Shown here piece after piece: positions 8,021-31,310 of a stretch of 32,000 nt of DNA (positions are counted from its first letter, which is position 1; each line of letters starts with the position of its first letter). Location: contig NZ_CP064925.1 of assembly GCF_018336915.1 (NCBI RefSeq), positions 266,053-298,052 of the forward strand. Reading direction: 5' to 3'. The notes beneath the pieces are model-generated. The model worked only from the letters and a program-made list of their open reading frames with translations. It did no database searches and had not been told where the DNA came from. The stretch is from Acaryochloris marina S15 (GTDB taxonomy: Bacteria > Cyanobacteriota > Cyanobacteriia > Thermosynechococcales > Thermosynechococcaceae). The translations under genes were made by a program, and so were the position numbers.

Positions 8021-8052
8021 TCAAATGCATCCATGCATTTACGGGGGGATCC

Positions 8053-12497: not shown

Positions 12498-14912
12498 ATG
12501 ATTGGGACAACATCTTCTACAAAAGTTCAGCATTTTCTTGTTATTGAAGATGAATTAGGGAAGCGTACAATTCCACTACTGGAAACGACTTGTTCTATTG
12601 GCCGAGATCCCAGCAACTCGATTGTGATTCAATCACCATCAGCATCTCGTCAGCATGCTTTACTGATGAGGGTCACGATGCCTGATACCGATAGCCACAT
12701 GTTTCGCTTGATTGATGGAAACCTCCAAGGTAAACGCAGTAAGAATGGTTTGAAAGTTAATGACCATACTTGTACCACACATGATTTGAATCATGGTGAT
12801 GAAGTCATTTTTGGCGAGGATGTGCGGGCCAGATATTACATGACGAACAATATCGCTGATGTGCATTTTCTAGAGTCTTGTGCTGCTGATGAAGTCACGG
12901 GCTTTTTGTCTAATCTTCATAATCCAATGCAGACCTTAACGCAATCAGGTGAGGTACTTGCTAGCTTTAATGAGGCTGCTATTGTCCGTTTAGCATCTTT
13001 CCCAGAGCTCTTTTCTAACCCCATCATCGAAATTAACTTAAAGGCAAAACTACTTATTTAAATCCCGCTGCCGTAGCCCAATTCCCTCAACTACGGGATC
13101 TTCAATCTAAACACCCAATATTGGAGGGTTAGTCACATTAATTGCCAAGGATCATGAAAAGTTTTTTGTTAGAGAAGTAGAAATAGGAACCCAAGTTTTT
13201 GAGCAATCCGTTCACTTTATTGCTGAGAGTGATCTGATTCGAAGTTATATCGTTGATATTACAGAACGAAAGTTAACGGAAGCGGCTTTGAATGATAGTG
13301 AGCGCCGATTTCGGGCTATTTTCAATCAAACCTTTCAGTTCTCAGGTCTTTTGAAGCCTAATGGTATTTTGTTGGAGGCTAATCAAACTGCTCTGGAGTT
13401 TGGTGGTCTCCATTTAGAAAATGTGATCAATTGTCCACTCTGGGAAACTCGATGGTGGACCAATTCAACAGAGACTCAAAGTCGGCTCCAGAATGCTGTA
13501 TTGGAGGCGGCTAAGGGAAAGTTCGTTCGGTATGAGGTGGATGTACTTGGAGCCAAGGACAAGGTGACAACCATCGATTTTTCTTTAAAGCCCGTCCGTG
13601 ATGAACTCGGTGTTGTCGTGTTGCTGATTTTCGAAGGTCGAGATATCAGCTATCACAAGCAAGTTGAAGCAGACTTACAGCAGGCACATAGCGAACTTGA
13701 GTTAAGAGTGCAACAACGAACAGCTGAGCTCAAGCAGAGTAATGAGCAATTAAGAAGCGAAATTGGTGAACGTGAGCGTGCCGAAACAGCTTTGCAATCG
13801 AGTGTTGCCACTAATCGGGCCTTGATCAATGCAATGCCCGATTGGATGTTTCGCATTAATAGGGATGGTATTTTCGTCAATTATAAAGATGCCTTGAACA
13901 CCAAGTTCCCCTTCCAACTGAAGAGTTTTTAGGTCAGTCCCTAGAAAGGATCTTTTGCCAAGACACGGCACAACCGTTTTTTGACTGTATTCAAGCAGCA
14001 TTTACCACTAAGGAGATGCAGCTACTCGAATATCAACTGGAGTCTGAGAGTAACCTTTGCTTTTTTGAAGCTCGGATTGTAGTGAGTGCCGAGAATGAAG
14101 TGATGGCTGTAATTCGCGATATCACTGACCGCAAACGGGCTGAAGACGATATCCGCACAGCCCTGACCAAGGAACGGGAACTCAACGAACTCAAGTCTCG
14201 CTTTGTCGCTATGACCTCCCATGAGTTTAGAACCCCCTTGGCAACTATTTTGTCTTCGGCGGAGCTGTTGGAGCATTATGGCCACAAGTGGGACGATACT
14301 CGGAAGCTCAAGCACTTGAAACAAATTCAACAATCTGTAGAACATATGACAGGCCTGTTAAATGATGTGCTTCTACTGGGTAAAGCAGAATCAGGGAATC
14401 TCGCCTTTAAACCCATCCACATGCACCTAACAGATTTTTGCAGAGGTCTAGTAGAAGAGCTGCAGATTACTACGAATACTCATGAGATTGTATGCCAGTT
14501 GCAAGAACAAACTACAGAACTACATATGGATGAGAAATTGCTTCGGCATATCTTTACGAATTTACTCTCTAATGCAATTAAATACTCCCCCCAAGGAGGA
14601 CGAATAGATTTTGGTTTGGCCTTTGAAAATGACTATGCAATCTTCAATGTCCAAGATCATGGTTTAGGGATTCCCCAAACGGAGTGTGATCGCGTTTTTA
14701 ATTCCTTTAATCGGGCCAGCAATGTTGGCAATATTTCAGGGACAGGATTGGGGTTGGCTATCGTGAAACGTTCTGTTGATTTGCATGGGGGTGAAATCTC
14801 ACTCACTAGTCAAGAAAAGGTCGGAACCACCTTTACTGTACGACTGCCAGTAGGGGGAATTAACGGGATTGGGGAAAACAAATTTCAAATGACGTTCCAG
14901 CCTCTCGCTTGA
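12498..14912 (+). pseudogene. FHA - PAS - PAS - PAS - HisKA - HATPase sensor histidine kinase, split by three 1-nt frame breaks
   Basis: ORFs 12498-13061 (FHA: CSIGRDPSNSIVI...SRQHA), 13288-13932 (PAS plus coiled coil) and 14016-14912 (PAS end, HisKA SHEFRTPL, N/G1/G2 boxes) join seamlessly. The join requires restoring one base at each of the A-run at about 13040-13042, the T-run at about 13129-13130 and the C-run at 13908-13911. The frame classes 0 to 2 to 1 to 0 fit three single-base deletions. Confidence 0.85.
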
Positions 14913-15027
14913 CAGTTATGGTACCTGAAATCTGTTTTGTTAAGGTGTTAAGCATCCGTAAGCCCAAAGTGTGGGATCTTGCAACGTTCAGGTTAGCGGG
15001 TAAACCAATACCGCTATCGAAAATTTT

Positions 15028-15327
15028 CCACCTGTAAATGTTTCCGGGTTAACTTGCCAAGCCTGAGTTTTGGAGGTTTTACAATGGTTTCACTCCACTC
15101 AGATTGGAAGGCATCTCTTTTTGTCAAAGTCAAAATTGTACTCAGTGATGACTACGGCAATGTCTTACCAGCAAGTTTCGCCAGAAGAATAAGGGGATAA
15201 GCTAGTCTGAACGAGTAACTCGCGCCTTAACTGTACTGAGAACTGCGGAACTAAATGGCCAATAGCAGCAGCTCTGGCTCCCTCAAACCAATGCAGAGTA
15301 AGTGAACCCGGAATAATTTACAGGTGG
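15028..15327. repeat. Inverted-repeat pair enclosing about 254 bp (MITE-like or IS-remnant candidate)
   Basis: CCACCTGTAAATGTTTCCGGGTT (15028-15050) against AACCCGGAATAATTTACAGGTGG (15305-15327) gives 21 of 23 complementary positions. Flanking A/T runs are partly complementary. There is no long ORF inside. Confidence 0.45.
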
Positions 15328-15520
15328 GATTTTTCTAAGCTGTGTCGCCAACCAAGCAACTTATTTGGGTGAATGTGCTGACGCCATTTGAACAGTTTAG
15401 GGGTTAGGGAGAGATGCCTAGGAGATTCAGATGGGTCAGCAGGGAGCGTTCTATAGGGGTGGGGTTTATATTGAGAAATAAGGGTATTTGGTGAACAATG
15501 ATTTCTGAAGGTAGAAAGAC

Positions 15521-15964
15521 ATGGTTAGGGCTTTACTCAGGTTTGGTTCTGGGGATTTCGACTTACTTGAGATTTTGCGGAGAGGGCCAGATGCTTGGAA
15601 CCAGTGGCGTGAGAAAAATCCTAATCAGGAGATAAATCTCAGTGGTGCAAAACTCAACGGTGCCAATCTCCACAGTGCCGACCTCCACAATGCAAAACTA
15701 AGCAGTGCAAAACTCAACGGTGCCGATCTCCGCAGTGCCGACCTTAGCGATGCAAAGCTCAACGATGCGAACCTCACCCGTGCAAAACTAAGCAGTGCAA
15801 AACTGAACAATGCGAACCTCGTTGGTGCCAACCTTTTTGGTGCCCACCTCTTCAATACTGATTTCACGAATGTCAACCTCAGACGTGCCGAACTATTCGG
15901 TGCTATTGTTTTTGAAGAAACTAAGATTGATCCTAAATGGCTTCCTAAACCTCATCCAAGATGA
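15521..15964 (+). CDS. Pentapeptide-repeat protein
   Basis: 147 aa with about 20 consecutive A(D/N)LxX pentapeptides (GAKLNGANLHSADLHNAKLSSAKLNGADLRSADLSDAKL...). Confidence 0.9.
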   Translation: MVRALLRFGSGDFDLLEILRRGPDAWNQWREKNPNQEINLSGAKLNGANLHSADLHNAKLSSAKLNGADLRSADLSDAKLNDANLTRAKLSSAKLNNANLVGANLFGAHLFNTDFTNVNLRRAELFGAIVFEETKIDPKWLPKPHPR

Positions 15965-15999
15965 GATCTGGAGTTTTTAGATCTTGGGTGTTTTTGCAT
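15957..15999 (+). terminator. Candidate intrinsic terminator of the pentapeptide gene
   Basis: CCAAGAT...ATCTTGG and an inner AGATCT...AGATCT pairing can form a stem. It is followed by GTGTTTTTG. Confidence 0.45.
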
Positions 16000-16115
16000 A
16001 GATTCTTTTCGGGGCTTATGCGAAATACCTTCTATATATCAACAGTTTTGATTCTTTTGATTAATTCTCAGTAAAAAGGGCTCTTGTCCTCTTTTGTCGT
16101 CATAAAAAGTTATTT

Positions 16116-17156
16116 TTAACGTCTTTCTCTAGCTTTTTGCATAGCAATTTCAGCATTTTTCAAAGTAATATCAACCACATCATCAGCTGCCTGACCATAG
16201 CCAACACCAATGCTACCTGTGATAGTGATTTCATGATCTTGAATTGCAAAAGGCTGTTCAAGGCAAAATAACACTTTCTCCACAAATAAATCTACCTGTT
16301 TTTCATCTGTTAATTTGCTAAAAAGAATAGCAAATTGATCTCCTCCTAAACGAGCTAACATATCGTCGGGATTGATTACCTCCTGTAGCTTTACAGCTAA
16401 TTGTTTCAATAGTTCATCCCCAACACAGTAGCCAAAAGAGTAATTAACCTCTCTAAAGTGATCGCAATCGATATAGAGCACGGCGAATTTATAAGATTTA
16501 TCCATCTTGGCTAAAAATAGAGACTGTTCCAAACGCTTCAAGAATGAAGCTCTATTGGGGATATTTGTGAGTAGGTCATAATGACTTGTTTCTAATAAGC
16601 GGGTGTTCGAAAGTTTCAATTTACTATTCTGCTCAATGACCCATTCTTGGAGTTGGTTATTCAAACCCAGGATTTTTTCTTGAGCTGATTTTAATAAAAG
16701 CTGATTATGCACCCGTGCTAATACTTCTTCAACTTGAAAAGGTTTTGTGAGATAGTCTACCCCTCCCACATCAAAGGCTTTGACTTTATCTAAGGGATCG
16801 TCTAAAGCACTAAGGAAAATAATGGGAATATTTGCTGTTTGGGGATTCCGTTTTAGTTGAACACAAACTTCATACCCATTTAGATCTGGCATGAGGATAT
16901 CTAATAGGATTAAATCGGGTAGGAGAGAGTCTACAGAGTTTAACGCCATTTCACCACCCGTTGCTTTTCGAACAGAATAGCCCTGAATAGACAACATGCT
17001 AGAGAGCAACCGCAGATTTTCTAACGTGTCGTCGACAATCAGAATCTCACTGGGAAGTAATTGGGTGGCTGGACTGGAGAGATCCATATTCAGATTAGTA
17101 TGGAGTTCATTCATGGTTGGTTTTAAAGTGCGATGGGTCAAATTTGGTTGCATCAT
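16116..17156 (-). CDS. REC - coiled coil - degenerate GGDEF (GGDQF) response regulator
   Basis: REC domain: VDD, LLDILMPD acceptor, FLSA, TKP. In the GGDEF domain the motif is GGDQF, there is no RxxD (NPDD instead), and DCDHFREVNYSFGY replaces DxDxFKxxNDxxGH. The start overlaps the upstream kinase stop (ATGA at 17153-17156). Confidence 0.88.
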   Translation of the reverse strand: MMQPNLTHRTLKPTMNELHTNLNMDLSSPATQLLPSEILIVDDTLENLRLLSSMLSIQGYSVRKATGGEMALNSVDSLLPDLILLDILMPDLNGYEVCVQLKRNPQTANIPIIFLSALDDPLDKVKAFDVGGVDYLTKPFQVEEVLARVHNQLLLKSAQEKILGLNNQLQEWVIEQNSKLKLSNTRLLETSHYDLLTNIPNRASFLKRLEQSLFLAKMDKSYKFAVLYIDCDHFREVNYSFGYCVGDELLKQLAVKLQEVINPDDMLARLGGDQFAILFSKLTDEKQVDLFVEKVLFCLEQPFAIQDHEITITGSIGVGYGQAADDVVDITLKNAEIAMQKARERR

Positions 17157-19685
17157 TCCATCAAAGCGTCCATCAACTGAACGATTTTCTCGAATTGATA
17201 ATTCTCAACCCAGTTGGTCAAAGCTATGGCTAAAGATTGATGCTCTGAAGGGATTTGCTCAATGAGTTGTAAAAGGAGGACATCGTTTCCTTGACTCGCT
17301 CTTTGACCGATGCCCTTTATCCAATCTGGTGGCATGATCCTTAAGCTCTCTGGATCAAGATTTCCATGATTATGGGGTTGGTCTTTATTCTGGGTATCGT
17401 GCTTTTGAAGAGAGTCTTCTGTTATATATTTCACTCCAAGATGGGCTGCGATTTTCTGTATCAGTTCATTTTGTTGAAAGGGTTTGCGTACAAAATCATC
17501 ACATCCTGCATCAAATATTTTTTTGTTGTTTTCTTCAAATACACTTGCTGTCAGGGCAATCACAACAGTCTCCTTCCCTTGAGAAGTCGCCTTAATGTGT
17601 TGTGTTGCCTGGTAGCCATCCATTTCAGGCATACGTATATCCATCCATATCAAATGGGGCTGCCACTCTTGCCAGATTTTTATCGCTTCTCGACCATTCT
17701 TGGCTTCTCGCACTGAGAAGCCCATCAAACATAGGAAATCAACGAGGGGAGCTCGATTCGTTTGCTCATCATCAGCAACAAGAAGGCGAAATTCAGTTGA
17801 TTGGGGGCCACACAAACAGGCTGAACCATCGCTTCACTGTCAGTGTCTGTCGGCATACCATTGGTAATCACTAAGGGAATATGAAAGACGAATGTAGAGC
17901 CTTGTCCTTTTTGGCTATTGACGGAGAGATCCCCTCCCATCAGTCGTACAAACTTCTTGCTAATACTGAGTCCTAAGCCCGTACCTTCTCTTGATTCCAA
18001 GCCAATATCACCCTGCTCAAATGCAAGAAAGAGTTTATCCAGGCTTTTAGAATCTATTCCAGGACCTGTATCACTGATAGCAAACGTCAAAGTCTGAGCG
18101 TCTACAGAAACATATAAGTCGATCTGCCCCTTTTGAGTAAATTTGATGGCATTACCCAGAATGTTAATCAACACTTGACGGAGCTTACCTTGATCCGCCT
18201 TGATATATCGAGGGACAAGGGCTTGTCCATGAAAATAGAGTTGCAGCTGCTTGCTTGAGGCTTTGAGGCTAAACAGCTCTTCCAACTCGATGAGCAAGTT
18301 GTATAGGTCAAAGCTGACAGGCGTGAGATGGAGTTGACCTGACTCAATTTGGCCATTTCCAACACATCATTGATTAATGCTAGAAGGTGTTTCCCACTGC
18401 GGTTAATCGTATTAACGTACTTGGTATCCTGCACCCCTAGGTGTTGAGAGCGCTGCATCAGCTGGGCATAGCCTAAGATGGCATTAAGAGGGGTACGGAG
18501 TTCATGGCTCATATGCTTAAGAAATCGCTTTTTGAGCTATTAGCCCTTTCTGCCTCCTCTTTCGCAGCTTTGAGTGCTTTAGTTTGTTTTTGCGAATGGG
18601 CTAATAGCTCAGCTTGCTGTACTGCTACCCTAATTGGGTCCCACCTGAGTCATGATTTGGGTCGCTGATGAGTCCCAATGGAAAGGAGCAGCATCTTGAG
18701 TCGCCATAAGTAATCCCATAAATGCGTACCATCGACAATGGGAACCACGAGATAAGATCCGATGTTTAATCGCTTTAAGACTTAAGGGTATAAGGATCAA
18801 ATCCAAACTCATTGACATCTGTGATCGTTCGACAACGCACTTCTTGACTGGGGTCTCCCAAGGCAAATTCGTAAAGATAGGTTTGACTCAGTATTTGTTT
18901 TAGGCCCTTTGGGGGAGAAATCTCTACAGTCTTAGCTCCCGGATGAGCAGCTTTAAGAGCCATGATGGAGGGGCTATTCTGGCTCACCGACTCAGCGACT
19001 AACGTCCCGCTCCAATCGGATTAAATGATATACCAAAGTCCGATCGCAAGCAATAACCTGCTTTAATTCTTGAGTCGTATCGACGAATATAGTCTGTATA
19101 TCTAAGGTCTTTCGCATGCGCTGAATGATCCCAGAGAGGGCATGTTCTCGTTCAGCACTTTTTTCAATTCAGCCGTTCGTTCTTGGACAAGGGTCTCTAA
19201 ACCATCATTGAGATTGCGGAGTTCAACTTCGGCTCTTTGGCGTTCCTGAATTTCTTTTTGTAAGGCTTGATTGACTGTTTCCAGTTGTTCTGGCGTTTTC
19301 AAGGATAAGAATTTGGGAAGTAACGTTGCCATTTCCGTAGCTGTATAGCAGGAGACTAGAGCAGTGATAGCTTGCTCCAGTCCCAGACAGCCAGTAGGCA
19401 GGGTGCCATAAGGTCCAAATTTCCAGTAAATGGCCTGTACCACAGAGAACAATGAATGCTCCAAACAACAGAAAATATTCTGAAAGGGACATCGCTCCTT
19501 TTGGAGACGAAGTAGAGCAACATCACAGGAATGGAAAAGTAAGCCACTGCAATTAGTAAATCACTGATTACATGTAGACCTACCAAAGGAGTTTGCCAAA
19601 GGTAACAATGACCGTGAGGCATGTATTGCTCTGGGGAAAACAGATTTTTTAAAGTATTCCAAAGACTATTCATATATCCTGGCAA
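17153..19685 (-). pseudogene. Hybrid sensor histidine kinase: PHGHCYLW membrane module, coiled coil, GAF, HisKA, HATPase, REC and a C-terminal helical tail. It is broken by about 11 frame changes.
   Basis: Tiling ORFs 19356-19685, 19223-19492, 19102-19464, 18775-18987, 18630-18866, 18168-18512, 17725-18297 and 17153-17815, plus unlisted segments, gives a continuous protein only by switching frame repeatedly. Recognisable pieces include MPHGHCYLWQTPL, FLLFGAFIVLCGTGHLLEIWTLWHPAYWLSG, DWSGTLVAESV, SYLVVPIVDGTHLW, MSHELRTPLNAILGYAQLM, GTGLGLSISKKFV and LLVADDEQTNR...WMDIRMPEMDG. Confidence 0.85.
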
Positions 19686-19948: not shown

Positions 19949-20400
19949 ATGGCAGATCAACTAACTGCAACAACGGTGCAGCAAACACAAGCCTGGCAAC
20001 AAGCCATTCTGGACAGTGCAGACTTCACGATGATTGCAACAGACCCTCAAGGGATTATCCAAACCATTAATGCTGGGGCACTGCGCAAATTAGGCTATCA
20101 GCCTGAAGAAGTGATTGGTAAAGTTACACCCGCCATTATTCATGATCCACTAGAAGTTCAGGAAAGAGCACAACAACTCTCATGCGAATTGGGCTATTCT
20201 ATTGAACCTGGCTTTGAAGCCTTCGTTGCTAAGGCTCGATTGGGAATACCTGATGAAAATATTTGGACTTATATTCGTAAAGATCAGAGTCATTTTCGGC
20301 TACCAGCATAAAGCGGGAAAAGATTTGAGTATTTTCAGATAGGATCGCACTCTTTTGTAGATGAAATAGGCAAGATATCTGCGGTAGTCACAAAGAGCTG
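19949..20400 (+). pseudogene. 5' fragment of a PAS-domain sensor gene; it ends abruptly at the transposase-like gene
   Basis: ORF 19949-20311 encodes one PAS domain (ILDSADFTMIATDPQGIIQTINAGALRKLGYQPEEVIG...WTYIRKD). The last PAS strands appear only in shifted frames up to about 20400. No output domain follows. Confidence 0.7.
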
Positions 20401-20432
20401 TATCGTACCTTTGCAAGTCAACAGAGGAAACG

Positions 20433-21983
20433 ATGAGCCTGACAATACGAGAGCGCTGCCAAGCCGTCATGATTGTCTGTTCGAACAGGGAGTAAAAGGG
20501 ATGCGAAAATTGCTGCTGCGACAGGTCTATCAAAAGCAGGTTCATCGTCATCAACAGGCTATCGCTCGGCGTACCAATATCCAGAGTCACTATGTGGGAA
20601 AGTCAACAGGGAGTCAATGCTCAGAGTGATGCTTAGGAGTGTGTACTATTTCGCGTCAAACATGGGGTAGGACTGAGAGTCTATCAGAATTTTTTACAGC
20701 GATTCACATAGATGCTATGTGGGCGTTTCAGCCAGCTCCCTTCGGCTGTTGAAACGGAAGATGCGGGATGCGATTATCGCCTATGAAGTCGCCCAGCAAG
20801 AGCATTGCCAACCCAAAGACGGTCAGGGCATCTGTGTCGGTGGGACGAAACCTTTTTTGTTTACCTATCTTGGTGATGTTGGAATTGGCTAGTGGCTTTA
20901 TCTTCACAGAGGTGGAACGTCCCAACCGTACTTATGCCACCTGGCAAGCCCAGATTCAGCAGTGGTGGACCCGCTGTGGATGGCATTGTCATTTTATGGT
21001 GAGTGATGGTGCTCCAGCCTGATTAATTAGCTGTATCAGGCTTAGGCTGTGTCAGTGTTTCTGATTTATTCCATGCCCTGAGTGCCTTAGCCCAACCTAT
21101 CGGCAGTGATATGGGTCGTCAAATGAGTCAGTTGAACAAAAAAGCGACTGTACTTCAACAGCAACTTCTCAACGTTCGTAGTGAGGCTAAACAGCAACAA
21201 CTCCAACAATCAAAGGCGGAGATTTCTGCTCAGCAGCAGTCTTTAGAGCAGGACAAGATGGCCTATCATCAGGTTCTTCATCGCCTTACCCAAGTCATTC
21301 ATCCGTTTAATATCAAGACTTTGGAATGGCAGCTGTTTGATGATCTATCGGCTGGTTGAATGCTCCCCTCGCCCAGATGTCTACCCTAGCCAAAACCTAT
21401 GGTGCTCAGAAGGGAGCAAAGCCATTGACTCATTCCAACAACAAATTCCTTCAATGGCTCAGGGGATTCATGCTTGGTGGCAATGGGTGACTCAAGCGCT
21501 AAAGGTAGCCACAGATGATCTCGATCTACAAAACTGGGTACTCATGTACCTATTACCCTGGGCTTATTGGCAACAGCAAACGGACAAAACTCGGCATCCT
21601 CTACTCAAGGCAGATTATCGAAAGGCGACGGAACAAGCTTATGCCCGGTTACTCAAGCACCCCATGACTCAACAATGAACTCTCAAGAAAGCCAGGAGTG
21701 GGTAGACTGGGCGCAATGGATGAGTACGAAGTATCAACGCACTTCCTCCGCAGTTGAAGGACGTAATGGTTATCTATCCCGATTGCATCATGCAGCCCGA
21801 GGGTTTTCGGAAGAATCCTTGAAAGTGCTCACCATCATCCATAATTTTGACCTCAAAAGAGCAGATGGCACTACCGCAGCACAACGGCTTTTTGGACATC
21901 CTTTTCCTGATGTGTTTGAGTCGGTTGTTAACTCTATGGGGAATGCCAGTGGCACGTCAGTCCTCAATGAAAAAACGGCCTAA
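20433..21983 (+). mobile_element. Decayed large ORF of a cyanobacterial transposase-like/repeated-gene family, with multiple frameshifts
   Basis: Fragments in three frames chain into one protein of about 510 aa. The pieces are an N-terminal HTH-like part (MSLTIRERCQAV..., VHRHQQAIARR), GICVGxDETFF-like/LVMLELASGFIFTEVERPNRTYATW (20768-21022), a coiled coil (21111-21359) and a C-terminal YQRTSSAVEGRNGYLSRLHHAARGFSEESLKVLTIIHNFDLKRADGTTAAQRLFG (21567-21983). The family assignment is from memory of similar cyanobacterial proteins. I did not find terminal inverted repeats. Confidence 0.45.
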
Positions 21984-21995
21984 CCCTTTAACCCA

Positions 21996-23516
21996 AGCTA
22001 TTTTCCCGGCTTAAATTGATACCCTCAGTAAGTATCTCGATCAGCAAGCTGCTCAGCAAAAAGCTAATGAAAAACCGATTGAGTTTGATTAGACGATGAC
22101 TTAGATGCGATCGCAGGTCTAGACGATCTCCCCTACTGATGAACTTGAGACTGACCTCGGGAGCCCTGCAAGATGCGGAAACGGCTCCCATTATTGGTTT
22201 AGTTAACAAAATTCTGGCTAAAGCCTTGCAGAGCGGTGTATCTGATATTCATATTGAACCGCAAGAAGATCACCTTCGTGTTCGATTCCGTAAAGATGGT
22301 GTGCTCCAACAGGCCTTCGATCCGCTGCCCAGGAAGATTATTCCTGCTGTTATATCCCGTTTCAAAATCATTTCAGAGTTAGATATTGCTGAGCGTCGCC
22401 TTCCTCAAGATGGTCGCATCCGGCGACTTTTTCAGGGACGCAAGATTGACTTTCGGGTTAATACCTTACCGAGCCGATATGGAGAGAAGATTGTACTTCG
22501 TATTCTGGATAACTCCTCGACTCAACTGGGATTAGACAAACTTGTTGCAGACGAAGATAGTTTAAACATCGTTAGAGAGATGGTCAGTAGACCTTTTGGC
22601 CTGATTTTGGTAACAGGACCTACTGGTTCTGGTAAAACCACCACTCTCTATTCTGCCTTAGCTGAATGTAATCACCCAGGTGTCAACATCAGTACCGCGG
22701 AGGACCCAATTGAATATACCCTCCCAGGCCTGACCCAAGTCCAGGTGATTCGAGAAAAAGGCATGGACTTTGCCTCAATTTTGAGAGCTTTTCTAAGGCA
22801 AGATCCAGATGTCATTCTAGTAGGTGAGACCCGAGATAAAGAAACCGCTAAAACAGCCATTGAAGCAGCGCTAACAGGACACCTTGTGTTAACGACTCTG
22901 CATACGAATGATGCTGCTAGTGCTGTTGCTCGCCTTGCAGAAATGGAAGTCGAGCCATTCATGGTTCGGCGTCCTTATTGGGGTTGTTGCCCAGCGTTTG
23001 GTACGGCGAGTATGTTCAGACTGTAAAGTTCCCTATCAACCTTCACCCTCTGAGCTAGGTCGATTTGGGCTATCTGCTTCTCCAGGAACAGAGATCACCT
23101 TCTACAAAGCTAATTCGTTATCAGCTGATGAACTTCAAACAGCTCAAGCTACAGGACAAACAGTTTGTTCAAAATGTAACGGTATTGGGTATAAAGGGCG
23201 TTGTGGTGTTTACGAAGTTATGCAAATCACTGAAACCCTGCAAACATTGATTACTGAAGGGGCACCTACTGAGCGGATTAAAGAGGTGGCAGTTGAAGAA
23301 GGGATGAAAACCCTTCTAGCTTATAGCCTAGAACTAGTTAAGAAAGGGGATACTACCCTCGCTGAAGTTGAACGAGTTACCTTTACCGATAGTGGTCTAG
23401 AGGCTGAACTTAAAGCTAAGCGTAAAACATCTCTAACTTGTCGAGTGTGTAATGCAGATTTAAGGCCTGAGTGGTTAGATTGTCCCTATTGCACTACACC
23501 AAGATTCCAAGATTAA
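21996..23516 (+). pseudogene. pilB: Type IV pilus assembly ATPase PilB (GspE family), lacking its N-terminal domain and frameshifted
   Basis: ORFs 22139-23026 and 22908-23516 carry Walker A VTGPTGSGKTTT, DPDVILVGETRD, the His box TGHLVLTTLHTNDA and the tetracysteine CSDC...CSKCNGIGYKGRCGVYEV. There is a frame break at about 22964-22971. The linker DDLDAIAGLDD / TDELETDL / LQDAETAPIIGLVNKIL (22085-22200) is spread over three frames. No T2SSE_N domain lies upstream. Confidence 0.88.
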
Positions 23517-23585: not shown

Positions 23586-24706
23586 ATGGACTACATGATT
23601 GAAGACCTAATGGAAGAAGTCGTTGAGCGAGGAGGCTCTGATTTACACCTCTCAGTAGGCTTACCTCCCTACATTCGTATCAACGGAAAATTAACTCCTA
23701 CTGATTATGATCCACTGAGTCAAGAGCAATGTCAGCGTCTTATCTTTAGCATGCTGAATAATACTCAACGGAAACAATTAGAGCAAACATGGGAATTAGA
23801 TTGCTCTTACGGTGTCAGAGGCCTAGCTCGTTTTAGGGTTAATGTCTATAAGGATCGAGGTACTTATGCTGCTGCATTACGAGCACTCAGCTCTAAGATT
23901 CCTGCTATAGAAACGTTGGGATTACCAAATATTGTCCGAGAAATGTCTGAGAAGCCCCGTGGTTTGGTACTAGTGACTGGTCCCACAGGCTCGGGAAAAA
24001 CAACGACCCTTGCCTCCATGATTAACAATATCAATCTAACTCGGGCTGAACATATTCTCACGGTCGAAGATCCCATTGAATTTGTTTATGAACCTATTAA
24101 AAGCCTGATCCACCAGCGTCAAGTTGGTGAAGATACCAAGAGCTTTTCGAATGCACTGCGGGCTGCTCTCCGTGAAGATCCAGATGTTATTCTTGTAGGG
24201 GAAATGCGGGATCTTGAAACGATTCAACTTGCTATTTCTGCAGCAGAAACCGGTCACTTAGTTTTGGAACACTTCATACTAGTTCAGCAGCCCAAACTGT
24301 TGATCGGATGGTAGATGTATTTCCGCCTGAGCAACAGACTCAAGTTCGAGTGCAATTGTCTAACTCTTTGGTGGCTGTATTTAGCCAAACGCTAGTGACG
24401 CGGAAAAATCCGAAACCAGGTGAGTTTGGGAGAGTCATGGCACAAGAAATTATGGTATCCACTCCCGGAATTGCTAACTTAATTCGTGAAGGAAAAACAT
24501 CTCAGATATACTCTGCTATTCAAACTGGAGGAAAGTTAGGAATGGTTACTTTAGAGAAAGTCCTAGCTGAACTCTATCAGGCTGGCTCGATTTCCTTTGA
24601 ATCAGCTGTATCCAAGACATCCCGTCCTGATGAAATGCAGCGATTAATGGGAGCAGCCCCTATGGGTAATCAACGTGGCGCTGGTGCCACTTCTTATCGG
24701 CGATAA
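23586..24706 (+). pseudogene. pilT: Twitching-motility retraction ATPase PilT, with a single frame break
   Basis: MDYMIEDLMEEVVERGGSDLHL..., Walker A VTGPTGSGKTTT, DPDVILVGEMRD. The frame is lost inside the His box at the T-run 24262-24265: ETGHLV then FGTLHTSSAAQTVDRMVDVFPPEQQ only after adding one T. Confidence 0.92.
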
Positions 24707-24775: not shown

Positions 24776-25997
24776 ATGCCAACTTATGTTGTTCGTGCGC
24801 GAGATCCTCAAGGTAAATCTAGCCAAAAAAGGGTAAGCGCAACCTCTCAAAAAGAAGCTCGTTCAAATATCCAGCGTCAAGGACTACAAATCCTTGATAT
24901 CAAGGAATCTCAAGGCTTCAGCATGAGTGCTGAGCTTGATCTGAGTTTTCTTCAATCCATCACTGTCAAAGATAAGGCTCTTTTCTCTAGACAATTTTCA
25001 GCTTTAGTCAATGCCGGGGTTGCATTGGTAAGAGGGTTGGGAGTTATGTCTGAACAGTGCAAGAATCCTAAGCTGAAAAAAGCACTTTTAGATGTGAATG
25101 CTGCTGTGCAACAAGGCGTTAGTTTGTCGGATGCCATGAGAGGCCATCCAGCGGCTTTCGATCAGCTTTATGTTGCCATGATTCAAGCAGGTGAAACGGG
25201 TGGTGTCTTGGACGAAGTGCTAAATCGTCTTGCAACCCTACTTGAAGATCAAGCACGTCTCAAAAATCAGATTCGATCAGCTCTTGCTTACCCAGTAGTA
25301 GTTGGATTTATTGCTGTATCTATTTTCTTGGGAATGGTCATTTTTTCTCATTCCCGTTTTCGATGGCATTTTTAGCCAATTGGGTGGCGATTTGCCAGCA
25401 TTTACTCAACTGATGGTGAACCTCAGTGAGTTTTTGCGAACACCAATCTATGGAATAATGGTTGCTGCTTTTTTCTTTGGTGCTAGTTTTGCACTCCGTC
25501 AATACTATCGAACACGGGCAGGCAGAGAAACGATAGACCGAATCATGCTTAAGTTGCCCCTGTTTGGTGATCTAATTCAAAAGACCGCTGTAGCTAGATT
25601 CTGCCGCACCTTCGGGTCTCTCTCCCGTTCAGGGGTTCCTATCTTGTATTCACTGGAAATAGTGCGAGATACTGCTGGTAATCAGGTAGTTTCCAATGCT
25701 ATTGATGAAGCTCGTCGCGAAATCCAAGGAGGAGGGATGCTAAGTCTGGCTCTGCAGAAAGAGAAAGTTTTTCCTATCCTAGCCACGCAGATGATCAATG
25801 TGGGGGAGGAAACGGGTGAGATTGATAAGATGCTCATGAAGGTTGCTGACTTTTATGAAGATGAGGTAGAACAGGCAGTTAAAGCCATGACTAGTGTGAT
25901 GGAACCCTTAATGATTGTTGTGTTAGGGGGGATGGTTGGTTCCATTCTTGTAGCTATGTATTTACCTATGTTCAAGATCTTCGATCTAATTGGCTAA
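24776..25997 (+). pseudogene. pilC: Type IV pilus platform protein PilC (GspF family), with a single frame break
   Basis: ORFs 24776-25375 and 25302-25997 are the two GspF repeats. The junction is the T6 run at 25341-25346 (VSIFLGMVIF / LIPVFDGIFSQLGGDLPAFTQ). Confidence 0.9.
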
Positions 25998-26054
25998 ACA
26001 GAAGCTATTCTGTAATTCTCTCAATTTAAGTGTGATTTACGCCAAGTTTCACTA

Positions 26055-26126
26055 GCTCCTAATACATATTGTAAGCAAGCCCTATCGACTAAGAGATAGG
26101 GCTTGCTTACAATATGTATTAGGAGC
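26055..26126. terminator. Perfect 32-bp inverted repeat with an 8-nt loop downstream of pilC (terminator or RNA-processing hairpin, or a palindromic element)
   Basis: GCTCCTAATACATATTGTAAGCAAGCCCTATC (26055-26086), loop GACTAAGA, then GATAGGGCTTGCTTACAATATGTATTAGGAGC (26095-26126). I checked the complementarity base by base and it is exact. Confidence 0.6.
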
Positions 26127-26181
26127 TTCTTTGAGTGTTTAATTCTCCAGCACAGAATAATTAAAAGCTTGAACTAGAGTG

Positions 26182-26640
26182 ATGCCGATAGATCCAAATT
26201 TCTACCAGTTGTTAGATCTTTCTCCTGAAGCCTCTAGTGATGAGATCCATGATGCCTATCGAAAAAAGAGTAAGGTTTACCATCCTGACACGACTACCCT
26301 TCCCAAAGAAGTGGCTATCCAAAAATTTCAACAACTAATGATGCTTATGGCATTCTGAGTAATCCTAAACTAAGAAAAGCATATGATTATCGTTTAGGGG
26401 TATCGTCTGTCAAATATACTCCCGTGCAGAAAGTACCCCATTCAGATACTCCATTGGCCTCTTCACAGGTGCAAATTCAAGAACGTCCTTTGTCTCCTGG
26501 GGAGCTTGTTGCATTACTAATTTTGTGTATCACCTTCTTAGGGTGTTTTAATCCTGGCAGTGGTACTGGGGTTTGCCCGTGGGGAAATGATGTTTGTAGA
26601 ACCTACTGCTTTAACTGATGTGAGTTCGAAGTTTGTATGA
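26182..26640 (+). pseudogene. Small J-domain (DnaJ-like) membrane-anchored protein, with two compensating frame breaks
   Basis: J domain: NFYQLLDLSPEASSDEIHDAYRKKSKVYHPD...FQQL, then NDAYGILSNPKLRKAYDY only after restoring an A at about 26337. The C-terminal TM helix VLILAVVLGFARGEMMFV is recovered only after removing a G at 26541-26543. The net change is zero: 459 nt, or 153 codons. Confidence 0.75.
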
Positions 26641-26830
26641 GGAGTTCGCAAAGCGGCTCTATCGATTGCTTCTAAAAATATGCTGGCCTGGTTTCAGGCA
26701 GATGTAGTATTGAGCCTCGTATGATGAGTCAGGATGCTCTTTAAATCTCCTTCATTGACCTAACATTTGTCTTTATAATTAAGCACCCAACTATTGATCA
26801 ATTTAATGTCTAAGTTGTAAGAGTTAGCTA

Positions 26831-27112
26831 ATGACTGAATCATGTTTACCAGATCCTAAAACTCCACTATATAATCACCCTCTCCCCCAAATTGAGCAGT
26901 GGCTTCACAAGCTTGGATGTCACCAAGATTCTCAGGATTTGCATCTTTGGCGTGTTGAGCGTGATCAGTGGAAGGCAGAAATATGGCTAGATATTGAGGA
27001 GTTGTCTGTTTTGTATGTGCCGGCGGCTTCCACTGAACGTGATATTCAACGAACTTTTAAGTATTCTTTAAGTCGCCAAGATATTGAAGATGCAGTGTTC
27101 TCAGGTCCTTAG
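26831..27112 (+). CDS. Conserved cyanobacterial/plastid-lineage small protein (DUF3143-like)
   Basis: 93 aa with LYNHPLPQIEQWL...FKYSLSRQDIEDAVFSGP, a pattern I recognise as DUF3143. Function unknown. Confidence 0.6.
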   Translation: MTESCLPDPKTPLYNHPLPQIEQWLHKLGCHQDSQDLHLWRVERDQWKAEIWLDIEELSVLYVPAASTERDIQRTFKYSLSRQDIEDAVFSGP

Positions 27113-27174
27113 CGAGTACTATTCCTTGCCTAATTATTGATTTGTGCAAAAAACATGTAATTTTTATTGAATAA

Positions 27175-27926
27175 TTAGTTGACCTTGCCAAATCTTCTAT
27201 GCCTATCTTGGAAATCTCTGAGTGCTTGATGGAACTCATCCCGATCGAAATCTGGCCATAAGGTTTTGGTAACGTAGAGCTCAGCATAGGCCATTTGCCA
27301 CAAGAGAAAGTTACTCACCCGCATTTCTCCGCTGGTTCGAATTAACAGGTCTGGATCAATGATTCCAGCTGTATAAAGATGCCGTTCAAATAAACTTCAT
27401 CAATATCATCTAGATGGATTTGATTATGTTGAACTTTAGAAGCAATGTCGCGGCATGCTTGGATAATTTCTCTACGACCTCCGTAATTAGTGGCGATGAT
27501 AAATTTGATGGTGTGATTATCTTTGGTCGCAGCCATAGCCCGCTGTATTTCTGTTTGTAGTGTCAACGGTAAAGCTTCTAAATCACCGACAAAGTGTATT
27601 TGCACGCCTTCATCGATCATCTCTTGTAGTTCGCGACGTAAAACCCTCTCAAATAGCATCATCAAGAATTCCACTTCGTCAAGAGGACGTCCCCAATTCT
27701 CTGTGGAAAAAGCATATGCTGTGAGTGCTTGTACGCCCCAATCTTTACAACAGCGGAGAAGAGACTTAAGGGTATCTACCCCACGACGATGTCCGATAAT
27801 GCGGGGTAATCCTCTCTGCTTGGCCCATCGTCCATTACCATCCATGATGACGGCGACATGTTTAGGTAGTCGCTGAACATCTAAATCTGAAGGGAGTTGC
27901 TTTGGAAGGCTTGAATTTAATGTCAT
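27175..27926 (-). pseudogene. uppS: Undecaprenyl-diphosphate synthase UppS, with one frame break before the C-terminal catalytic segment
   Basis: [13 protein letters not shown] and FSTENWGRP are in ORF 27342-27926. The C-terminal [42 protein letters not shown]...HRRFG is intact but in another frame down to the stop at 27175-27177. The break is at the short run at about 27396-27397 (GATGAAGTT, expected GATGAAAGT). Confidence 0.92.
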
Positions 27927-28837
27927 ATATTCTTGCGAGATTTGAGCAATGGGAATATGAGAGAAAGCAAAGAAAAGACTTGTTTTCTGATTTTCCTGCC
28001 TAAACTTCTCAAGCTTGGGGTAACAACTTCTCTATCCACAGATAAGATTAATCGATCAGCCAACAATTCCCTCAACTTACTGCTGGTTAAAGGGCGTCTA
28101 AGTATACCTTGTTCTGCTAATGAGATAGATCCAGTTTCTTCAGAAACAACGATGCATACACAGTTGTCAACCCGTTCGGTGATCCCCATCGCAGCACGAT
28201 GTCGAGTACCGAGTTGGCGAGATGCGGTCTGCTCGGAAATAGGTAGAATAACGCCAGCTGATATGATTCGATCGCCTCGGATTAATAGGGCACCATCGTG
28301 TAATAAGGTGGTTGTCTGAAAGATGGTTTGGATTATCTCCCGAGAAATTTCTGCACTTAACTTAATTCCTGGCACTGAAAAGTCTCGTTCATCAATCGGA
28401 ATATTTCGAGTTTCAATGATGAGTAAAGCACCCGTCCGATTTTGGGAGAGTTCTTTTATTGCGTCGACAATTTCATCAATGATGTTATCGGGATTTTGGG
28501 TGACCTGCTGTGCAGGACGTAGCATTTTTAACAGTTCGCCTCTCCCCAATTGCTCCAGAAAGCGTCGGACTTCTGACTGAAGAATGACGGCCATGGCTAC
28601 CGCAGAGCCAATGAGTAAGAAGGTGAGTAACTGATTGAGGTAATTGAATTGCAGTAGCTTGCTAGCAACGGTTGCTAGAACGAGAAAAACGACACCTCTT
28701 ACCATCCATAGGGTTCGCCGCTCAGCAATGACGAGAAGCAGCATATAAGTTAAAGCTAAAGCAAGGCTGATATCAATTAAGGAACGGAAGGTCTGAACCC
28801 AGTCATGGTTTATCAGCCATTCCTTAACCCCGTCCAT
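27923..28837 (-). CDS. cdaA: Membrane-anchored diadenylate cyclase CdaA (c-di-AMP synthase)
   Basis: Three N-terminal TM helices plus a DAC domain ([34 protein letters not shown]). The stop overlaps the uppS start (ATGA at 27923-27926). Confidence 0.92.
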
Positions 28838-28947
28838 GCCTTTGGCCTAACCTTCTCGTATACCTATGTCAGTTTAGCGTTATCAGTAATCAGTGCAATA
28901 TTAGTAAATAGAGGGCAAGCTTGGTTATCGCTATGAAATTTAACCAG

Positions 28948-30285
28948 CTATTGCTCTAAATGCCTTGGCAGACAATCTTGACGAATGAGGTCTTGAAAAG
29001 TTTCTCTTTTAAGAATTAAGCTTGCGTCTCCGTCCTGCACAAGTACAGCAGCAGGTCGGGATATTCGATTGTAATTGGATGCCATGCTGTAATTGTATGC
29101 TCCGGTTCCCATTACGACCAGAACATCACCGGGTTGGCTGGGGGGGAGAGCGATATCTTTTAGTAAAATGTCCCCGGATTCACAATGTTTACCTGCGATG
29201 GTAACGATCTCTGTGGCGGAAGAATCCATGTGGTTGGCAATGGCAGCACTGTAAACAGATTGGTATGTAATGGGGCGGGGGTTATCAGACATTCCACCAT
29301 CTACAGAAAGGTAGGTACGAATATCGGGAATGTTCTTTTTGGCTCCAACTTTGTAAGCAGTAATGCAGGATGTACCTACTAGAGAGCGTCCTGGCTCGCA
29401 GAGTAGCTTCGGGAATGGGATATTGGCTGTCTTACAGGCTTGCGAAATGCCGTTGCAGACGATCTCTGACCATTGAGTGATGCTGGGAGGGTCATCTGAC
29501 TCAACATAACGAATACCTAGACCGCCGCCAATGTTGAGTTCGTCCATGGGTAGGCCTAGAGCCTGTGCTTTGGCTAACCACTCGACAATGACGCTGGTTA
29601 GATCTTGATGAGGTTGCAGCTCGAAGATTTGAGACCCCGATATGAGCATGAAAGCCAACCCAAGCGATTTGAGGGGTTTCTGAGCAAAAGACAAGACCTG
29701 ATCAATTTGATTGGGGTCGAAACCGAATTTACTATCTAGATGTCCCGTTCGAATATATTCATGGGTATGACATTCAATGCCAGGTGTGATTCTTAGCATG
29801 ACCCGGGGAGGGTTTGGCAGGGTGTCGATTGAGGAAAGAAGCTCTGTAAGTTGCTCTAGTTCGAGCCAGTTGTCCGCAATGATGGTACAGCCACATGACA
29901 GGGCCATTTCTAGTTCAGTAACTGATTTGTTATTGCCGTGAAAATAGATAGTTTCAGGATCTACGCCTGCTTGTAAGGCGGTGTACAGTTCACCCCCTGA
30001 TACCACATCTAGTCCTAAACCCTCTTTAGCCACTAGTGCAGAGATAGCCATGCAGCTCCAGGCTTTGGAGGCGTAGAGGATTTGGGATGGACCAGGATAG
30101 AATTTTTGAAATGCGAGACGATACTGTTGGCAGGCAGTCCTCAGGGTCAGTTCATCTACGATGTATAAAGGAGAGCCAAATTGCTTAACGAGTTCGGTAA
30201 CAAAGCATCCACCAATTACCATCTGTCCTGCTTTATCGATTTCGGCAGATAGTGGAAGTATTTGCTGGTTGGGGGAGGTCTCCAT
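28948..30285 (-). CDS. lysA: Diaminopimelate decarboxylase LysA. The ORF is open, but it contains a local -1/+1 frame excursion across the HxHxGSQ motif.
   Basis: 445 aa with YASKAW (PLP lysine), GGGLGI, HCESGD and GAYNYSMASNYN. At 29636-29656 the encoded AFMLISGSQIFE becomes the canonical GFHAHIGSQIFE if one G is moved between two G-runs. Confidence 0.92.
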   Translation of the reverse strand: METSPNQQILPLSAEIDKAGQMVIGGCFVTELVKQFGSPLYIVDELTLRTACQQYRLAFQKFYPGPSQILYASKAWSCMAISALVAKEGLGLDVVSGGELYTALQAGVDPETIYFHGNNKSVTELEMALSCGCTIIADNWLELEQLTELLSSIDTLPNPPRVMLRITPGIECHTHEYIRTGHLDSKFGFDPNQIDQVLSFAQKPLKSLGLAFMLISGSQIFELQPHQDLTSVIVEWLAKAQALGLPMDELNIGGGLGIRYVESDDPPSITQWSEIVCNGISQACKTANIPFPKLLCEPGRSLVGTSCITAYKVGAKKNIPDIRTYLSVDGGMSDNPRPITYQSVYSAAIANHMDSSATEIVTIAGKHCESGDILLKDIALPPSQPGDVLVVMGTGAYNYSMASNYNRISRPAAVLVQDGDASLILKRETFQDLIRQDCLPRHLEQ

Positions 30286-30488
30286 TATTGGAGTGGATGA
30301 GCTGATACTTGGTGGTTGGAGGGATTACCATAAACTGACCGGAATGGGCTTAGATTTTGTCAGGGTAGGATTAAACTCGGCAGGAGCCATCAGAGAATCT
30401 TATCATATTCAGCTGTCCCTATTGCCGTGTCTGCTGCAGGGTTCAGATTATGGAAAAGCACTGAGTACGATGTTAGCAGTATGGTCTC

Positions 30489-31310
30489 TCATGAATTTAA
30501 TGTAGCTTTCTGACTTTCTAATCTTGTTTGAATAGATTCAGGGATATTTGGCAGGAAATCATAACCCGTTTCTTGTTCTAAATGATCGACGGTGACGATG
30601 TACCGTTGCCATTCATGGGATTTAATGCCTTGCTTATTGGGGATATCGACGGCGATCACTGGAGTATTGGCAGAAATACCGTTTATACCTAATGTGGGTC
30701 TCATCCATGACGACGATAATTTTCCCAAAGATTTTGGGGAGGAATGACTTTCCCTTTTGCGATCGCAGCTCGTTTCCCATATCCTCCCGCAATAATAAAC
30801 AGTTCTTTGCCTTCATCCACTAAATCCCGACAGTGGTTTTCGAGGTCAACCCATGGCCCTCGGTTGTTATCTGGCCGCTGAGGAACAATATTGGTCATGA
30901 CGAAGGTCGCAGAATGTTGACTTCTGAATTGGTTCGGATCGCCAGAAGGGGTCATATGCCCTCGGTCATAGCCACTCCGGGTATAGTCTCTCGCATCCAC
31001 TTTCTCCCATTTTGGCGGTAAGCTTTGATCCGCTCGAAAATCGTTGCGACGTTCGACATCTCCTAACCAAGTTTGATCGAGCTGCCAACTCACCCAGTTG
31101 GGAATTCCCTTGCTGCGGTTGTAGGAAAGGGCAAATTGAGGCTTTTTCATCAAATAGTTATTACTGTCGGCTAAGACGACTCTGGCTTGACTAGGATTGC
31201 CAAGGGCTAGATGGTCAACATTGGATTGGGTGAATATTGAGAAGAAGCTTACATCCGGTCAAGAGTGAAAAACATAGGAATACCGTGATCGGTAGATGCG
31301 ATCGCATCAT
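30489..31310 (-). pseudogene. NucA-like DNA/RNA non-specific endonuclease with a lipoprotein signal peptide, and three frame breaks
   Basis: ORF 30701-31153 carries NWVSWQL...YDRGHMTPSGD...TFVMTNIVPQ (the DRGH active site). The C-terminal PVIAVDIPNKQG...TVDHLEQETGYDFLPNIPESIQ is in ORF 30489-30728, after a short third-frame piece (KIIVVMDE). The signal peptide MMRSHLPITVFLCFSLLTGC (from 31310) is in yet another frame. Confidence 0.85.

Follow-up and report, generated by a model that had tools for sequence, protein, structure and literature searches.

Features of the window and reference sequences

The window is a stretch of 32,000 nucleotides from Acaryochloris marina S15 (contig NZ_CP064925.1, positions 266,053 to 298,052), and its features are collected in Table 1. 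Bases 1 to 13039 contain mrpD/C, an nhaS3-like gene, sbtA/sbtB, three REC-GGDEF(-EAL) genes, a 178-aa ORF, and the start of an FHA sensor kinase gene. This kinase has Pfam matches to FHA and PAS and an intact 805-aa ortholog on plasmid pMB01 of Acaryochloris sp. 'Moss Beach'. Further signalling genes, an IS-like element with a Pfam match to DUF6399, and the genes from pilB to a nuclease occupy the remainder.

Table 1. Coordinates of the features in the window (position 1 is its first base)
Feature	Position	Strand	Remarks
Error-free control zone	1..13039	.	Colinear with Acaryochloris 'Moss Beach' plasmid pMB01
FHA-PAS-HisKA-HATPase sensor kinase	12498..14912	+	805 aa when intact; 3 one-base deletions
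Indel-bearing stretch	13040..31249	.	63 window-private one-base indels
Pentapeptide-repeat gene, intact	15521..15964	+	0 gaps vs pMB01; length equal to pMB01 annotation
REC-GGDQF response regulator, intact	16116..17156	-	Exact protein in 6 independent Logan contigs
Hybrid sensor kinase (ETR1_N-GAF-HisKA-HATPase-REC)	17153..19673	-	843 aa when intact
PAS sensor gene, 5' fragment	19949..20296	+	Truncated at 20297 by inserted element
DUF6399-family IS-like element	20297..22024	+	1752 bp, single 534-aa ORF when intact
pilB	22025..23516	+	First ~170 codons missing; 6 one-base indels
pilT	23586..24706	+	1 deletion, 24262 T5->T4; repaired 373/374 identical
pilC	24776..25997	+	1 insertion, 25341 T5->T6; repaired 407/407 identical
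DnaJ-domain protein	26182..26640	+	152 aa; deletion 26336, insertion 26546
uppS	27175..27926	-	250 aa; 1 deletion, 27396 T3->T2
cdaA (diadenylate cyclase), intact	27923..28837	-	Exact protein in 18-19 contigs
lysA	28948..30331	-	460 aa; compensating insertion 29635/deletion 29677; insertion 30325
Endonuclease_NS-family nuclease	30489..31307	-	271 aa; 5 indels; Pfam match

Several copies of the element, 91-94% identical, are present on the Moss Beach plasmids (6 matches, distributed over two records), and imperfect terminal inverted repeats of ~26 bp were seen at its ends by eye only. To our knowledge, no transposase activity has been demonstrated for DUF6399. The element joins plasmid-type DNA resembling pMB01 (1-20296) to chromosome-type DNA (22025 onward), and it lacks a target-site duplication because its two flanks come from different loci. 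The second join lies inside pilB, which begins only at codon ~171, where the element abuts it, so that the preceding ~170 codons are missing; alignments to three references (L006, L040, and L041) all end at 22025, which is nucleotide 512 of the 2007-nt gene. This loss had gone unnoticed in the initial annotation. In Moss Beach, the pMB01 and chromosome segments are not joined, and both PAS and pilB are uninterrupted.

The PAS fragment had been described as continuing only in shifted frames, but no frame shift is involved: insertion of the element interrupts it at 20297. The sequence of the PAS/element junction is common to the window and a contig (L002) of the short-read run SRR12447961, while the PAS gene is uninterrupted in contig L001 and on pMB01, so that the element is an insertion polymorphism in this gene. 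The insertion is the sole disruption here that is backed by independent data.

Reference assemblies comprised Logan runs, the Moss Beach chromosome and plasmid, an ENA MAG, and GCA_052827785.1, with 1-10 covering each site; the Logan runs were taken as short-read data by assumption. The SRR12447961 contigs represent the same strain as the window, with 0 substitutions over 9.5 kb and the insertion junction in common, and the run also has a pyrE-like protein allele found otherwise in the window alone. Within the affected span the same-strain contigs cover 15976-20423 and 31377-32000 (100.000% identity in the latter); in the intervals 12.5-15.9 kb and 20.4-31.4 kb, the evidence comes from other strains and from the mutation spectrum. 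The reference for the element was its intact paralog on pMB01 (L038, 94% identity). An interrupted Moss Beach copy (L037), too degraded to serve as the primary reference, was kept as a second witness.

Moss Beach (GCA_021497025.1) is the closest complete relative, with 99.2-99.4% identity over most of the window and 98.0% over 1-5888 owing to a divergent first kilobase. Its genome was assembled from ONT reads with Flye and Pilon using ~7x Illumina data, and 502 chromosomal 'pseudogenes' were reported (PMC9029297). Private homopolymer errors of its own split the same REC-GGDEF, hybrid kinase, and uppS genes, but in contrast to those in the window they are over-calls in runs of at least 5 bases, at other positions.

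Database look-ups varied in yield. Exact-protein look-ups returned no matches for the pentapeptide protein, the 330-aa REC-GGDEF protein, or nhaS3, and only Moss Beach for sbtB. Protein homology searches did not return the near-identical orthologs of a kinase fragment (best match 88%) or a pilC fragment (best matches 93-94%). The genome-contig scan contained only species representatives, at no more than 87% protein identity, and provided the first localisation of the three gaps in the FHA kinase gene. A look-up of cdaA with a short flank did not include the SRR12447961 contig among its matches, and Rfam and tRNA scans gave no matches. The DUF3143 protein was identical to that in independent contigs.

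Census and distribution of one-base length differences

Base-level alignment of the window with near-identical references identified 63 one-base length differences between 13040 and 31249 (52 bases missing and 11 extra). The more than 25 frame breaks reported in the initial annotation were thus real and undercounted. None of these differences fell in the first 13 kb; at 2.4 errors per kb, a stretch of 13,039 bp free of them would arise with P ~3e-14. The transition from clean to dirty sequence is sharp, near 12.3-13.0 kb. Within the clean zone, 6809-11241 was 100.000% identical to a same-strain contig (L016) with 0 gaps, and 1-5888 aligned with pMB01 with 0 gaps. Between 5855 and 12500 the window differed from pMB01 only in the lengths of runs of 6-8 bases and in a gapped and substituted patch at 10748-10793; for all differences covered by short-read data (those within 6809-11241, among them 10578 and 10816), the window and not pMB01 was correct. 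The left 13 kb are therefore clean, in agreement with the first description of the genes before 12.5 kb. The right boundary of 31.3 kb proposed for the breaks is less secure: the last 751 bases of the window are clean, which would occur by chance with P=0.2, so the right edge of the stretch may lie beyond 31249.

Per kilobase, the number of indels was 0 up to 13 kb, 3-6 at 17-20 kb, 17 at 20-21 kb, 6-7 at 21-23 kb, ~1 at 23-30 kb, and 6 at 30-31 kb, with the maximum of 17 per kb on the DUF6399 element. Intergenic positions 16073 and 30442 were hit, as was 20385 in the non-coding 5' end of the element. Outside the hot core the rate was ~1.3 per kb, and because of this background rate the clean status of REC-GGDQF (P=0.25) and cdaA (P=0.30) is unremarkable. 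Both proteins, identical to those of 6 and 18-19 independent contigs, respectively, and the pentapeptide gene were as intact as had been claimed. Homopolymer density was equal in the clean and dirty zones, and no break in GC content or skew was found at 13 kb. A compositional cause was rejected on both counts. The clustering of indels tracks position and not gene function: density is graded around the IS-like junction at 20.3-20.7 kb. The ratio of deletions to insertions was 41:2 on one side of the junction and 11:9 on the other, the chromosome-like side (p=2.6e-4), a contrast that a single simple error process does not predict.

The FHA kinase gene carries deletions at 13040 (A4->A3), 13126 (G4->G3), and 13908 (C5->C4). 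Twelve deletions and one insertion break the frame of the hybrid kinase gene, which also has a compensated T6/T3 pair at 17524-17527; about 11 breaks had been counted there. A TC dinucleotide contraction postulated near 19490 proved to be two A-run deletions, at 19476 and 19483. All 24 one-base indels of the element are deletions, of which 14 lie between 20447 and 20746, and the same set was obtained against the second paralog. In pilB the indels lie at 22089, 22130, 22162 (two), 22965, and 22980 and are absent from 3/3 references (L006, L040, and L041); those of the nuclease gene are at 30696, 30724, 30915, 30936, and 31249. The indels in the DnaJ-like, uppS, lysA, and nuclease genes are absent in 10/10 independent assemblies.

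These counts agree with the earlier ones for the FHA kinase (3), pilT (1), pilC (1), DnaJ-like (2), and uppS (1) genes, and are compatible with the minima of 5 and 3 given for the transposase-like gene and pilB (24 and 6 by alignment). The compensating pair in lysA was confirmed, with the insertion at 30325, at the annotated extreme 5' end, found in addition; the nuclease gene has 5 indels where 3 had been recognised. Positions 13040, 13908, 18348, 24262, 25341, 27396, and the lysA pair had been located exactly. At three other sites a break exists but its position and base required correction: 13129 (TT) is a G run at 13126, 26337 (AA) is TT->T at 26336, and 26541 (GGG) is T3->T4 at 26546.

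Origin of the frame breaks

Long-read assemblies are documented to contain indels that fragment genes (PMC12007338; bioRxiv 10.1101/2021.11.07.467652). The 63 indels in the window are, in our judgement with high confidence, uncorrected single-base consensus errors of the long-read type and not gene decay, because independent assemblies, including same-strain short-read contigs where these overlap, carry every gene intact. All 63 were private to the window, being absent from each of the 1-10 assemblies covering the site, so that the comparison with the closest genomes suggested in the initial annotation favours the basecalling or consensus artefact that it had named as one possibility. Over the 4.4 kb of 15976-20423, SRR12447961 showed 0 true substitutions and yet was without 15/15 indels and the compensated pair (17 indel events and 0 substitutions in the alignment with L002). 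An intact 843-aa hybrid kinase is encoded in Logan assemblies whose only differences from the window are the indels and 0-7 substitutions; the gene was complete in three runs and cut by contig ends in two more contigs.

The mutation spectrum points in the same direction. In 26.1-32 kb the ratio of window-private indels to substitutions was 12:3, that is, at least 4:1, compared with 1:155 among the other assemblies (Fisher p=7e-15); 2 of the 3 substitutions proved to be real strain SNPs, leaving at most 1 unexplained. The error rate per homopolymer rose from 0.16 to 0.58, 1.9, 5.2, and 12% for lengths of 1 to 5, with 15 events at non-repeated bases and 61/63 in runs no longer than 5. At 29635/29677, 30915/30936, and 17524/17527, two changes of opposite sign lie close together. 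Repair of the indels alone opened 11/11 genes with 0 internal stops and 95-100% amino-acid identity (803/806 for the FHA kinase, 508/535 for the element relative to its paralog, and 498/498 for pilB), in line with the earlier remark that there were no nonsense codons beyond those caused by the shifts.

Genuine pseudogenisation, in which relaxed selection on sensing and motility genes would have left real one-base indels in the kinases, pilB/T/C, and their neighbours, had been proposed alongside the artefact. The breaks do cluster in signalling and pilus genes, and, if the junction is real, truncation of pilB at 22025 would leave the cell with no need of pilT and pilC. Against this, the same-strain short-read contig has the intact 843-aa hybrid kinase with 0 substitutions, and the reference run lengths were already present in same-strain contigs over 15976-20423. 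No indel is shared with any relative; compared with natural variation in this region, the indel:substitution ratio is reversed by a factor of more than 600; and density follows distance from the junction and not gene function. The essential genes uppS and lysA and intergenic DNA were also hit, and after repair nothing of the nonsense or other damage of decaying genes is seen, pilC and pilB being identical throughout. We regard such decay as so improbable that it can practically be set aside. Reductive pseudogenisation in endosymbionts such as Blochmannia (PMC3622351) likewise involves frameshifts at mononucleotide runs in many genes, including normally essential ones, but those lesions differ from the ones in the window in being shared by related lineages, accompanied by substitutions and nonsense codons, and seen in any chemistry.

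Hits in essential genes would be accounted for if a plasmid or cointegrate had captured the chromosomal segment from pilB'-pilT-pilC to lysA-nuclease via the element and the duplicate were free to decay beside intact chromosomal copies, and the window does join plasmid-type to chromosome-type DNA at the IS-like element. The plasmid-native FHA and hybrid kinase genes are equally affected, however, and same-strain contigs, which continue without a break across 15 indel sites, have the plasmid-native side as a single intact copy. Real decay would also add substitutions, of which at most 1 private one is unexplained against 12 indels, and neither compensating pairs 3-42 bp apart nor 14 deletions in 300 bp with almost no substitutions look like evolution. 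Decay of a redundant copy is thus highly improbable.

A mixed origin, with most indels artefactual and a few on the chromosome-like side representing real strain-specific mutations, would fit the deletion:insertion ratio, which differs across the junction and is balanced on that side. The chromosome-like side lies outside same-strain short-read coverage, and at least 2 'private' substitutions proved to be real strain SNPs. The right-hand indels nevertheless show the same run-length dependence, include compensating pairs, also hit uppS and lysA, and are absent from 3-10 close relatives at 98.3-99.6% identity, which makes this origin very unlikely.

Other sources of localised frame changes were considered. 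Phase-variable contingency loci have long tracts, typically of at least 7 bases, at the 5' end or promoter of a gene, with one per gene. They and IS elements with programmed frameshifting resemble the window in that frame changes occur at mononucleotide runs and one affected gene is transposase-like, but the runs involved here are short, mostly of 1-5 bases, with no fixed location in the gene and as many as 24 in a single one. Phase variation was rejected since the runs are too short and too many per gene. Programmed frameshifting was rejected for the transposase-like gene, whose intact paralog is one uninterrupted 534-aa ORF, and a mutator strain was rejected since substitutions are absent and the indels are strongly localised.

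Junction and possible history of the stretch

Consensus error of the long-read type remains the preferred reading of the indels. Long-read and incompletely polished hybrid assemblies (Kastor, PMC12007338; bioRxiv 10.1101/2021.11.07.467652) show the same one-base, deletion-biased, run-length-dependent indels, which produce false pseudogenes, are absent from short-read data, and leave ORFs that are restored by indel repair alone. Unlike the errors in such assemblies, those in the window are not genome-wide but are confined to a stretch of at least 18 kb whose neighbouring sequence is perfectly accurate; their density rises to 17 per kb, and many of them fall in runs of 1-3 bases. These features point to locally very low support and not ordinary systematic homopolymer error. 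The errors would be of Nanopore or PacBio type, in a stretch that probably had little long-read support and was not, or only partly, corrected with short reads, next to 13 kb that are at short-read accuracy.

The likeliest history would be a weakly supported bridge across a repeated element, because the bad stretch centres on the element that joins plasmid-type to chromosome-type DNA. The bridge could be a rare real cointegrate, or it could be a chimeric join for which better copies of the flanks elsewhere in the assembly captured the polishing reads; the join between the element and pilB may accordingly be a real event or a chimeric one, and the stretch is probably weakly supported and possibly chimeric. 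A rare real cointegrate between a pMB01-like plasmid and the chromosome, formed via two DUF6399 copies (in the PAS gene and in pilB) with disruption of pilB, is a possibility to which we give rather low credence. If it existed, few long reads would have captured the junction, which would explain the poor consensus; biology would then account for the junction but not for the frameshifts, which would remain artefacts. The PAS insertion, which is independently supported, and the pilB truncation, which may be real, are ordinary IS activity.

At face value the window would describe a cyanobacterium in which uppS, lysA, pilus genes, and sensor genes are broken, and it could feed false 'pseudogene' counts, gene-loss calls, and truncated protein-database entries. 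The artefact shows that this contig, and probably other contigs of the assembly, should be re-polished, and it draws attention to a plasmid-chromosome join that may be chimeric. It also shows that position and assembly history, and not gene function, form the background against which clustered frameshifts should be interpreted. Fragment ORFs of the broken genes are already indexed in protein databases.

Indel content and layout of the stretch

The window is Acaryochloris DNA and belongs to a contig of 298,052 bp. Heavy fragmentation in the open reading frame maps was confined to positions beyond 12.5 kb, where base-level alignment to near-identical references identified 63 one-base length differences (13040-31249), the window lacking a base at 52 of them and carrying an extra one at 11. 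The clustering of frame breaks described in the initial annotation is confirmed and extended: its counts were too low, most of its base-resolved examples were correct or off by a few bases, and the genes it listed as clean were clean. The PAS fragment, which it had read as frame-shifted, is instead cut by an inserted element at 20297.

Genes were named from Pfam matches on intact orthologs. The plasmid-like side carries an FHA-PAS histidine kinase (3 indels), a pentapeptide protein, REC-GGDQF, an ETR1_N-GAF hybrid kinase (13 indels plus one compensated pair) and the PAS gene; the chromosome-like side carries pilB (6), pilT (1), pilC (1), a DnaJ-domain protein (2), DUF3143, uppS (1), cdaA, lysA (3, two compensating), an Endonuclease_NS nuclease (5) and a phosphoribosyltransferase. 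The element between them has 24, and two are intergenic (16073 and 30442). The mrpD tract at the left end looks divergent or recombinant on alignment, and the short repeats may be MITEs or IS ends.

Features of the window and density of one-base indels
Feature	Position	Observation
pMB01-like part	1-20296	Colinear with pMB01 (CP071718.1), a plasmid of Acaryochloris sp. 'Moss Beach'; no gaps over 1-5888; 99.4% identity over 5855-20297
mrpD tract	1-1000	101 mismatches, no gaps against pMB01; near-identity beyond
mrp antiporter genes, nhaS3-like antiporter, sbtA/sbtB (bicarbonate uptake)	1015-4812	Plasmid-type DNA
Part of sbtA	4257-4778	87% nucleotide identity to plasmid DNA of Pseudanabaena sp. 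PCC 7367
Paralogous REC-GGDEF(-EAL) genes	6218-11835	Three neighbours, two tandem and one inverted
REC-GGDEF 5' parts	6809-7174; 10876-11241	79% identity, inverted orientation; SRR12447961 contig L016 ends within both
Short unannotated repeats	5209-5357; 12122-12228; 15028-15335	95-100% identity to several other Moss Beach plasmids; some copies adjoin transposase genes; the 12.1-kb repeat lies directly before the clean-to-dirty transition
DUF6399-family IS-like element	20297-22024	Junctions 20296/20297 and 22024/22025; pMB01 paralog intact (one ORF, 534 aa)
Regular G drop-outs	20595-20673	Seven at 10-19 bp spacing over ~80 bp, almost no substitutions; unusually regular
Chromosome-like part	22025-32000	Colinear with Moss Beach chromosome (CP071717.1), an ENA metagenome-assembled contig and GCA_052827785.1; 98.4-99.2% identity
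Perfect inverted repeat	26060-26125	Stem ~32 bp, loop 8 nt, between pilC and DnaJ-like gene; every Logan contig stops at its centre (~26098)
Event density	1-13 kb	0 events/kb
Event density	17-20 kb	3-6 events/kb
Event density (left part of element)	20-21 kb	17 events/kb
Event density	21-23 kb	6-7 events/kb
Event density	23-30 kb	~1 event/kb
Event density	30-31 kb	6 events/kb

Evidence for consensus errors

The frame breaks are not a real biological feature. The deletions in the element are absent from two paralogous copies, and the remaining indels are absent from all covering assemblies (1-10 per site). Over 26.1-32 kb, 12 indels and 3 substitutions are private to the window, two of these substitutions being real strain SNPs, whereas comparison of the other ten assemblies with one another gives ~155 substitution sites and a single indel, which only the Nanopore-based Moss Beach genome carries (Fisher p=7e-15). 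Runs are steadily more likely to carry an event the longer they are (0.16, 0.58, 1.9, 5.2 and 12% per run for lengths 1-5), 15 events fall at non-repeated bases, and several insertion/deletion pairs are spaced 3-42 bp apart; this combination is typical of consensus errors rather than of slippage mutation. Correction of the indels alone restored 11 open reading frames, free of internal stops and with 95-100% amino-acid identity to intact orthologs.

Same-strain evidence was provided by Logan contigs, which appear to be short-read assemblies, given how well more than 10 runs agree with one another. Those of run SRR12447961 match the window at 100.000% identity over 6809-11241 and 31377-32000, have its otherwise window-specific PAS/element junction, and share with it an allele of the phosphoribosyltransferase that every other sample lacks, so that in sequence the run behaves as the same strain. 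Across 15976-20423, its contig shows no substitutions and lacks all 15 one-base indels that the window has there; a T7/T2 run pair of the window reads T6/T3 in this contig, and its hybrid kinase is intact (843 aa). The same-strain contigs span only part of the affected stretch. Privacy, spectrum, run-length dependence, frame repair and this contig support the artefact that the initial annotation had offered as one cause.

Its other proposal, relaxed selection on sensing and motility genes, is unsupported: event density tracks position, the essential genes uppS and lysA as well as intergenic DNA are affected, and no significant depletion of events was found in non-coding DNA. Homopolymer content does not differ between clean and affected parts and no break in GC or skew crosses the window, so the clustering is not due to sequence context. 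Beyond the core at 18.3-22.2 kb, events occur at ~1.3/kb, a rate at which an error-free REC-GGDQF (P=0.25) or cdaA (P=0.30) is expected; the contrast between a kinase with 11 breaks and a clean neighbour, which had been read as pointing to selection, therefore reflects position. Relative to the paralog, 20447-20746 contains 14 deletions and only 5 substitutions. The affected span may extend past its apparent right-hand limit, since 751 clean terminal bases have P=0.2 at ~2.2 errors/kb. The palindrome at 26.1 kb is probably a terminator or MITE-like sequence that breaks k-mer assemblies.

The element junction and a probable origin of the errors

In the window, the element joins pMB01-like DNA to chromosome-type DNA. 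Its insertion in the PAS gene is real, being backed by an independent short-read contig, and is polymorphic among strains. Its flanks are mismatched (…CATTTTC on one side, TCAGTAAG… on the other), comparison of both revealed no target-site duplication, and pilB as assembled begins at codon ~171, its first ~170 codons being lost at the junction. These three features point to recombination between two copies of the element (an IS-mediated cointegrate) or to an assembly chimera, so the apparent pilB truncation and the plasmid-chromosome junction at 22025 may or may not be genuine.

The stretch is most likely a bridge from plasmid-type to chromosome-type sequence via the repeated element, with a consensus drawn from long reads of very low effective support that short reads would have left uncorrected. 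Deletion:insertion ratios across the two sides (41:2 vs 11:9, p=2.6e-4) suggest that two pieces were differently built or polished, and the short contigs of SRR12447961 (4-8 kb vs 13-51 kb in sister runs) would fit a limited depth of short reads to polish with.

Comparable errors in the Moss Beach genome

Gene-fragmenting indels that persist past short-read polishing are documented in long-read assemblies (PMC12007338; bioRxiv 10.1101/2021.11.07.467652), and the main use of the present case is as an assembly quality flag and a caution on pseudogene calls. The closely related Moss Beach genome is a Flye assembly of R9.4 Nanopore reads, polished with only ~7x Illumina data, and is reported to have 502 chromosomal pseudogenes (PMC9029297). 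Private errors of its own interrupt the annotations of the corresponding REC-GGDEF, hybrid kinase and uppS genes, and such errors evidently survive readily in this genome group. They are private +1 over-calls, almost all in homopolymers of at least 5, located on pMB01 and the chromosome at window coordinates 10578, 10816, 16299, 18434, 18970, 19697, 19803 and 27280, the last adding a T where the base is not repeated. At these sites the window and the short-read contigs concur against Moss Beach.
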